Source: Bacilli bacterium (GTDB lineage Bacteria > Bacillota_I > Bacilli_A > RF39 > UBA660). From it: 41,594 nt of DNA. The DNA lies in assembly GCA_017476885.1 (NCBI GenBank), contig JAFUYX010000087.1:1-41594 (forward strand). Direction: 5' to 3'. Under the pieces are notes generated by a model. That model was not told the origin of the DNA and did no database searches. It was given only the letters and a program-made list of their open reading frames with translations. This document shows positions 39,095-39,324 of the stretch, piece after piece; position 1 is the first letter of the stretch, and each line of letters opens with the position of its first letter. Position numbers and translations under genes: made by a program.

Positions 39095-39324
39095 GTAAAT
39101 AATTATTTTTATAGTTTAATTATTTACTGTATAATATTTCTTATCCATTTTTAATGAATTTAGAAATGTGGTTGAGTTTAGGTAATACATAACACGGGTC
39201 TTTGTATCCATTTGATTGACGACCTAGCTCTTTTCTTTTTATTATCTGGTTTTAGAATGTGAGGAGAATTATCCTATATAACAAGCGTGATGAGGTGTAT
39301 TGAGTTCAAAGAGTTCAACCACAT
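39095..39324 (+). ncRNA. Putative IS110 bridge RNA
   Basis: 5' hairpin 39095-39127; stem 39166-39175/39315-39324 enclosing loops with target-matching TACATAACA and donor-matching TTAGAATGT and CGTGA. Ends are approximate. Confidence 0.8.

Follow-up and report, generated by a model that had tools for sequence, protein, structure and literature searches.

A probable bridge RNA in the left end of an IS110-group insertion sequence from gut-associated Bacilli

Introduction

An intact IS110-group insertion sequence lies in the stretch of 41,594 nt analysed here (the window), and its left end of 261 nt in all likelihood encodes a genuine bridge RNA, a reading to which we assign a probability of roughly 0.9. 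Loop 1 of this putative RNA would read the insertion site, its 5' side pairing with the bottom strand, and loop 2 would read the joined ends of the element itself, with AGAAUGU matching the right end and GCGUG pairing with the core plus the left end. The DEDD/serine recombinase encoded by the element would use this RNA to join the excised circle and the target, and would exchange strands at CA. From the work on IS621 we infer that the RNA is made, that it is bound by the recombinase and directs recombination, and that the recombinase is programmable. As the bridge-RNA mechanism was described in 2024 (PMC11208160, PMC11208158), the locus falls under a known principle and is a clear new example of it, not a new principle; the clade may already stand in the supplementary lists of predicted bridge RNAs of Durrant et al.

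Element boundaries and insertion site

The element, flanked by a CA core at each side and comprising 1581 bp including one core copy, splits a minus-strand gene encoding a YhcG/DUF1016 PDDEXK nuclease (Table 1). Its boundaries were read from other copies, from a paralogue of the target gene that lacks the interruption and from metagenomic contigs. Contig C88 of the source genome carries a second copy (L002, 1501-3115, minus strand) with 76% DNA and 72% protein identity, alignable from exactly CA+CGTATAAT on the left to ..AATGT+CA on the right, and a third, partial copy at the end of contig C9 (L003, right end only) agrees on the right end. The uninterrupted YhcG/DUF1016 paralogue on contig C85 crosses the site with a single CA. 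Additionally, in a DNA run from bovine gut (X6), one contig joins position 39077 to 40659, skipping 1581 bases and carrying CA once, with a 2-nt ambiguity at the joint and no mismatch over 51 + 89 aligned bases; the occupied form is present on another contig of this run (39068-40681). Hence, the copies, the paralogue and the empty and occupied contigs together give an element of 1581 bp with the core CA that an earlier note on this DNA had proposed, and show the insertion to be polymorphic in nature. According to the paralogue and the empty site, insertion is scarless around the 2-nt core, with no further target duplication. The paralogous site itself (L004, about 1500-1540, minus strand) is unoccupied and carries G instead of A left of the core; compared with the left target guide, it has one mismatch, at position 7.

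The stretch was found in 20 listed sequencing runs from nine studies, labelled as ruminant or unspecified gut metagenomes, and joints were read in four of these runs. Among the contigs of these four, which drop rare forms, no circle-junction joint was listed. The source contig (C75) belongs to a 1.12-Mb genome of 92% completeness, in which the exact element is present once and covariance model R1 (see below) recognizes only two full bridge regions. The C88 copy targets a different site (ATTATAT / CA / TA..), so that two guide specificities are found within one 1.1-Mb genome. Two further observations concern the surroundings of the insertion. A 10-nt inverted repeat, centred on the palindromic hexamer AATATT, relates the interior of the left end (39085-39094) to the right target flank (40666-40675) and may be due to chance in AT-rich DNA. 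The insertion is also adjoined by a 482-aa ORF (37376-38824, minus strand) with an N-terminal hydrophobic segment, a repeat-rich middle and a C-terminal hydrophobic anchor.

Table 1 Features of the element, its putative bridge RNA and its target site in the window
Feature	Position	Strand	Basis
C-terminal fragment of YhcG/DUF1016 gene, 69 aa	38870-39077 (38870-39079 with core)	-	translation; DNA identity to uninterrupted paralogue (contig C85); Pfam YhcG_C match stops at break
Left target (LT) TACATAA	39071-39077	+	last 7 nt, on + strand, of C-terminal gene fragment
Left CA core copy	39078-39079	+	copies become homologous here; 2-nt ambiguity at joint of empty-site contig
Element body	39080-40658	+	copy comparison; paralogue; joint 39077->40659 omitting 1581
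TATAAT, -10 half of putative circle-junction promoter, also in right donor sequence	39082-39087	+	sequence; conserved in relatives
5' stem-loop, 11-bp stem (arms 39095-39105 / 39117-39127)	39095-39127	+	folding
Internal promoter-like site TTTATA-16-TATAAT, 10/12 matches	39108-39135	+	promoter scan
Closing helix, 5' strand, pairs with 39315-39324	39166-39175	+	MFE fold; RNAalifold; compensatory pairs
Left target guide (LTG), 7 nt + core	39186-39194	+	identical to 39071-39079; flank comparison in relatives
Target-loop inner hairpin GGGU / AUCC	39196-39209	+	helix 3: 3/4 pairs with compensatory change
Right target guide (RTG) AUUG	39215-39218	+	pairs with CAGT 40659-40662, one G-U; weaker extension possible to 39211
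Target-loop handshake dinucleotide AC	39219-39220	+	complementary to donor positions 6-7 (GT, 40657-58)
Left donor guide (LDG) AGAATGT	39254-39260	+	identical to right end 40652-40658
LDG-adjacent bases GA	39261-39262	+	face core, no match to CA
Donor-loop inner hairpin AGGA / UCCU (39262-65 / 39272-75)	39262-39275	+	pairs 106-109 with 158-161 all compensatory
Right donor guide (RDG) GCGUG	39285-39289	+	pairs with CACGT (core + 39080-82); G opposite T, position 12
Donor-loop handshake position AU	39290-39291	+	guide comparison in relatives
Closing helix, 3' strand	39315-39324	+	MFE fold; compensatory pairs
Ribosome-binding site AGGAAAGGAAG	39325-39335	+	immediately after closing helix
Recombinase gene, 393 aa, DEDD-type RuvC domain + Tnp domain	39341-40522	+	ORF; Pfam; PDB; NCBIfam
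TTGACA, -35 half of putative junction promoter, right end	40640-40645	+	sequence; conserved in relatives; promoter scan
Left donor (LD), final 7 nt of element	40652-40658	+	right-end alignments of copies
Right CA core copy	40659-40660	+	copy comparison; paralogue; empty-site contig
N-terminal part of YhcG/DUF1016 gene	40661-41347	-	ORF list; Pfam; paralogue; frame stops inside element
Right target (RT), GTTAT...	40661 onward	+	first + strand bases of N-terminal gene part

Relatives of the element

Comparative evidence was drawn from 201 genomes of the taxonomic family of the source organism (source genome included); searched in six frames, 37 of them matched the recombinase at E <= 1e-30. Alignable left ends are present at 13 loci with 55-80% identical proteins, and these loci plus the window were used to build covariance model R1. 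The model recognizes 22 bridge regions in 31 loci, all of them upstream of the recombinase gene; 14 of the 22 are training rows, and the eight beyond training belong to proteins of 37-49% identity. At E <= 0.01, no region was matched by R1 in the other nine loci (L021, L023, L027-L032, L034), whose recombinases are 29-48% identical and one of which (L021) starts inside the gene. Counts of left target guides given below omit six of the 22 elements, where the contig starts inside the left end (L008, L009, L033) or at the core (L014, L022) or the left end is lost (L010), while counts that need the right junction omit three (L008, L025, L033). A pattern search of the genome contigs based on the single protein gave 233 pattern matches, none of which was confirmed. 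The clade occurs in AT-rich genomes of about 1 Mb from one bacterial family and is seen in ruminant gut metagenomes. Several of its members (L012, L013, L019, L020 and others) are decayed: their recombinase genes are broken by frameshifts or in-frame stops, yet the bridge regions can still be recognised; in L020, the right core reads TA, not CA.

Guides for target and donor

The 9-mer TACATAACA occurs at 39186-94 and 39071-79, its sole two matches on both strands of the 41.6 kb (0.47 expected). The 5' side of loop 1, UACAUAACA, thus repeats the left flank and the CA core and is predicted to pair with the bottom strand. Scaled to one strand of the 261-nt left end, a chance copy of either guide 9-mer (TACATAACA or, for the donor, TTAGAATGT) is expected about 0.002-0.003 times. 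Among relatives, the LTG agrees with left target plus core at 9/9 positions in 13 of 16 elements and at 8/9 in the other three, across seven distinct guides: ATTATAT, ATTATAA, ATTATAC, AGTATAT, GTTGTAC, CAAATTA and TACATAA of the window. The observed 109 of 112 flank matches were reached in none of 20000 flank shuffles, and compared with the flanks of other elements the same guides give a mean of 4.4/7 matches. Relative to ATTATAN, the usual guide of the clade, the window guide differs at three consecutive positions, and the window flank differs identically.

On the 3' side of this loop, each of the 22 RTGs has UG as its last two bases, which complement CA. Counted outward from the core with G-U allowed, uninterrupted pairing extends over at least 4 nt in 17 of 19 elements, including six with 8 nt, and over 3 nt in two (L013, L015); the total observed for the 17 elements with a flank of at least 6 nt was likewise reached in 0 of 20000 shuffles. 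The window RTG forms four pairs with one G-U, or six with two wobbles. As the compared elements are related, these shuffle figures overstate independence; the real evidence is the set of separate guide switches, namely in the window, L015, L017, L016/L026 and the position-7 variants.

For the donor, TTAGAATGT is found at 39252-60 in loop 2 and at 40650-58 in the right end, and a third match lies at 36277 (three in the window, 1.04 expected). The LDG repeats the LD heptamer exactly in 18 of 19 elements, across four different sequences, the exception being L011, where G replaces A and gives an rG:dT pair. The RDGs GCGUG, GCAUG, GCUUG and GUAUG face CACGT, CATGT, CAAGT and CATAT, respectively (18/18). 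Core and positions 10-11 are Watson-Crick paired and position 12 is a G-T pair in 18/18 elements with four different left ends; position 10 covaries, with C/T/A facing G/A/U.

The core is included in the pairing of LTG, RTG and RDG and is left unread by the LDG. Downstream of the latter, the bases read GA in 16 elements, GG in three and AG in two, hence never CA in 21 elements (one more row is gapped). The handshake positions, a concept introduced for IS621 (PMC11208158), behave differently in the two loops. The target-loop AC is complementary to the donor GT in all 17 elements with AC and a readable GT right end; under the published model (PMC11208158, PMC13626964), it would drive insertion and block excision. 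The donor-loop AU is constant in 20 of 22 elements and fits target positions 6-7 in 6 of 15; in the window copy, its A faces A at target position 7. AU does fit the donor's own GT (A-T, U-G), and we hypothesize that a donor-loop handshake fitting the donor itself would, following the same model, favour excision.

The earlier note had read a loop-1 match to left flank plus core, a loop-2 match to the right end and four legible guides from the window copy, and all of this stands: the guides occupy the same positions as in IS621, and the covariation with flanks and ends in homologues that it had named as a check is found. Three of its details need to be adjusted. In the proposed pairing of GATTG (39214-18) with CAGTT, the AUUG portion is robust with one G-U, while the fifth pair, involving G39214, is a second wobble. 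The segment CGTGA (39286-90) does pair with the junction, although its last A is the handshake position and not part of the guide proper. Finally, the GA-for-CA mismatch at the core, noted for the left donor guide, is present but not particular to the window copy.

Within DNA this AT-rich, with a promoter-like site and a ribosome-binding site within or beside the region, the left end might also be taken for a promoter plus 5' untranslated leader only, whose matches arise from chance or AT-rich low complexity; the non-significant single-sequence fold (see below) would agree with this. Such a leader is nevertheless very improbable given how rarely either 9-mer is expected by chance in the left end, the location of the matches at homologous loop positions in 22 elements, their change along with the flanks and the compensatory changes in the helices.

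Architecture and fold of the bridge RNA

The bridge RNA reading thus preferred comprises a region of about 230 nt, in which a 5' hairpin is followed by a closing helix around two arms, each with an internal loop. All motifs of the earlier note lie where it had placed them: its 5' hairpin folds as an 11-bp stem, its outer stem (39166-75/39315-24) is part of the MFE fold, and its AGGA/TCCT hairpin is supported by compensatory pairs. In terms of energy, the fold of the whole region as a single sequence is not significantly better than that of shuffled sequences (z = -1.59; 15 of 200 shuffles fold as well), so that the folding check proposed earlier recovers the hairpin and the outer stem without marking the region as unusual. 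The structure rests on comparative evidence and not on energy, the fold being only modestly better than that of shuffles. Here, compensatory changes are found in 29 of 43 model pairs (22 sequences, alignment A5) and in all six helices, although A5 is fitted to the model, and a MAFFT alignment of the 14 closest copies gives compensatory change in 5/43 pairs only. In A5, 95.3% of cells are paired, a share that falls to 40.6-47.5% once partners are displaced by 1-3 columns. The closing helix (helix 1) has compensatory changes in 5 of 7 pairs.

The target guides sit in the internal loop between helices 2 and 3. On the donor side, RNAalifold predicts four weak pairs entering the left donor guide (columns 102-105), consisting of U-A and G-U only and with one cell changed on both sides (pair 102-166), while the neighbouring inner helix covaries. 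The guides are therefore not buried in stems; such burial is what the earlier note had named as speaking against its reading. When 12 left ends were folded singly, a 5' hairpin of differing sequence was predicted in 11, L019 being ambiguous; applied to the 5' part of these 12, RNAalifold returned no consensus pairs, as the hairpins vary in length and misalign. An Rfam 15 scan of 38800-40900 with E up to 1 gave two chance snoRNA-like matches and no bridge RNA family.

Most relatives additionally carry a near-perfect palindromic hairpin 3' of the internal -10-like hexamer (stem of 13-16 bp in L002, L025 and L011), which in the window copy (39136-39165) is a weak stem. Two candidate pairings were set aside. 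A pairing of 39135-46 with 39325-35 in the MFE fold, which would sequester the ribosome-binding site, was dropped because relatives do not conserve its upstream segment. The loop-1 stem extension GAG/CTC of the earlier note competes with GCUC/GAGU, the pairing preferred by RNAalifold, and covariation favours neither.

Expression signals

In the integrated element, the right end holds TTGACA and the left end TATAAT; across the junction of an excised circle, the coordinates would place these as TTGACA-17 nt-TATAAT, with a predicted start just 5' of the 5' hairpin. A right-end -35 and a left-end -10 arranged in this way correspond to the junction promoter known from IS110 elements (PMC11208160). 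Since excision would bring both hexamers to a 17-nt spacing, RNA and recombinase would be made strongly from the circle only. A second TATAAT-like hexamer, conserved in relatives, lies 3' of the 5' hairpin and is followed by a second small hairpin; as part of the internal promoter-like site, judged by its sequence, it could allow the integrated copy a basal level of expression. For IS621, low expression from integrated copies has been reported (PMC13626964). The terminator scan found no terminator-like site to mark the 3' end of the RNA. RNA-library contigs (run X19) cover 39398-39713 and 39731-39946, both inside the recombinase gene and not reaching the left end, so that they speak neither for nor against the bridge RNA; as contigs they cannot show ends. 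Separately, TTGACA of the right end and TATATT of the flank (40640-40668) form a possible outward hybrid promoter (17-nt spacer, 11/12 matches) directed, in antisense, into the N-terminal part of the interrupted gene.

Short identities common to element and target are also known from classical integrases. The correspondence could accordingly be read at the level of DNA, as attP-like sites of a site-specific recombinase with no RNA intermediate. This reading is hardly tenable, because the matching segments are located 100-210 nt into the element, away from the crossover, and are split around covarying hairpins, one half in sense and the other in antisense orientation, which fits a folded single strand only. 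Moreover, the predicted consensus promoter of the circle junction points into these segments, and for IS621 the RNA was reported as necessary and sufficient in vitro (PMC11208160).

Recombinase

The 393-aa product of the element matches PF01548 (DEDD_Tnp_IS110) and PF02371 (Transposase_20) with E = 6e-26 and 2e-21, respectively, and the NCBIfam model NF033542, 'IS110 family RNA-guided transposase', with 196.7 bits (cut-off 140). In a PDB sequence search, IS621 (E = 4.4e-13) and ISCro4 (E = 9.2e-12) were the sole matches. Its earlier assignment to the IS110 family is thereby confirmed. The phmmer alignment places D8, E59, D100 and S313 opposite IS621 D11, E60, D102 and S241, and at the fourth acidic position E103 is found opposite D105, that is, E and not D; residue numbers of IS621 are those of PMC11208158, as given there, with PDB chain numbering assumed to be +2.

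Residues 236-307 also yield a sub-threshold NCBIfam match to a TIGR-Tas RNA-guided endonuclease model (30.7 bits, cut-off 100). The title of a preprint links IS110 transposases with Nop5-family proteins; any tie between the two would be no more than a guess on our part.

Glutamate in place of aspartate at this catalytic position, or a donor-side handshake ill-suited to the target (A facing A at target position 7), could mean that the window copy is an inactive relic of a true bridge-RNA element, a view with which the single occurrence of the exact element in the genome would also agree. We consider this unlikely, since the ORF is intact, as it is in relatives of 68-75% identity, and all guides still match. 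The occurrence of occupied and exact empty forms in one metagenome likewise argues that insertion or excision was recent, although a polymorphism of long standing would give the same picture.

Comparison with known bridge systems

The best described bridge recombinase is that of IS621 from E. coli, which uses a 177-nt bridge RNA (Durrant et al. 2024, PMC11208160; Hiraizumi et al. 2024, PMC11208158; PDB 8WT6), consisting, as published, of a 5' stem-loop, a target-binding loop, a linker and a donor-binding loop. Predicted bridge RNAs were reported for 85.7% of IS110-group elements (Durrant et al., PMC11208160). The window element resembles IS621 in its two Pfam domains and the aligned catalytic D, E, D and Ser, as well as in an RNA gene in the left end with a 5' stem-loop followed by target- and donor-binding arms. 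Each arm is built from a stem, a left guide, an inner hairpin and a right guide, the segments being found at equivalent places, and the correspondence of guides and DNA follows the rule published in PMC11208160. Left guides of 7 nt plus the 2-nt core and a right target guide of 4 nt are shared, and so is the G opposite T at donor position 12, reported as G161:dT12 in IS621 (PMC11208158). Two handshake bases 3' of the right target guide, matching donor positions 6-7, and a -35 in the right end joined on excision to a -10 in the left end complete the likeness.

In contrast, similarity of the proteins is low (with the phmmer value given above, only parts being aligned), and a chain of 328 residues in IS621 compares with 393 aa here. 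The core is CA instead of CT. A closing helix surrounds both arms, which differs from IS621 as described, and the RNA region is longer, at about 230 nt; the left end also contains an additional hairpin and another conserved -10-like hexamer. While the core takes part in all four guide pairings in the published IS621 model (PMC11208160), in which C130 pairs with the first core position, the LDG skips it here. Furthermore, the donor-loop AU of the present clade is constant and fits donor positions 6-7 rather than the window target. The second PDB match, ISCro4/IS622 from Citrobacter rodentium (PDB 9T56; bioRxiv 10.1101/2025.05.14.653916), is described as IS621-like in architecture, and differs from the window element in the same respects as IS621 does.

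With the IS1111 group (seekRNA or right-end bridge RNA), the element shares the protein family and the idea of an element-encoded bispecific RNA. Elements of that group carry the RNA in a right end longer than the left and have subterminal inverted repeats of 7-17 bp, according to PMC11208160. Here, the RNA is located in the left end (261 nt), which from the coordinates is longer than the right end (136 nt), in contrast to a guide RNA in a long right end.

Implications for the clade and for bridge recombination

It is conceivable, albeit rather doubtful, that the clade constitutes a mechanistic sub-type of the bridge system. Four features would set it apart: a covarying closing helix that ties both arms into a three-way junction; a core that remains unread by the left donor guide across the clade; a donor-loop handshake fitting the donor itself, combined with a target-loop handshake that by published logic favours insertion; and predicted junction and internal promoters, each followed by its own 5' hairpin. 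If this holds true, the recombinase would be more reversible and less insertion-biased than that of IS621, with a CA core.

Irrespective of this, the element offers a fully readable natural case of targeting by a bridge RNA, and this in a lineage distant from the enterobacterial model elements. It documents a natural 'reprogramming', in which three guide bases and the target have changed together and empty and occupied sites both occur in nature. Divergent orthologues with other cores or guide rules are raw material for recombinase tools; in one reported screen, 18 of 72 orthologues gave detectable product in human cells (bioRxiv 10.1101/2025.05.14.653916). The unread core and the atypical donor handshake, finally, make the clade a natural testing ground for the directionality model as published, the principle itself being unchanged.
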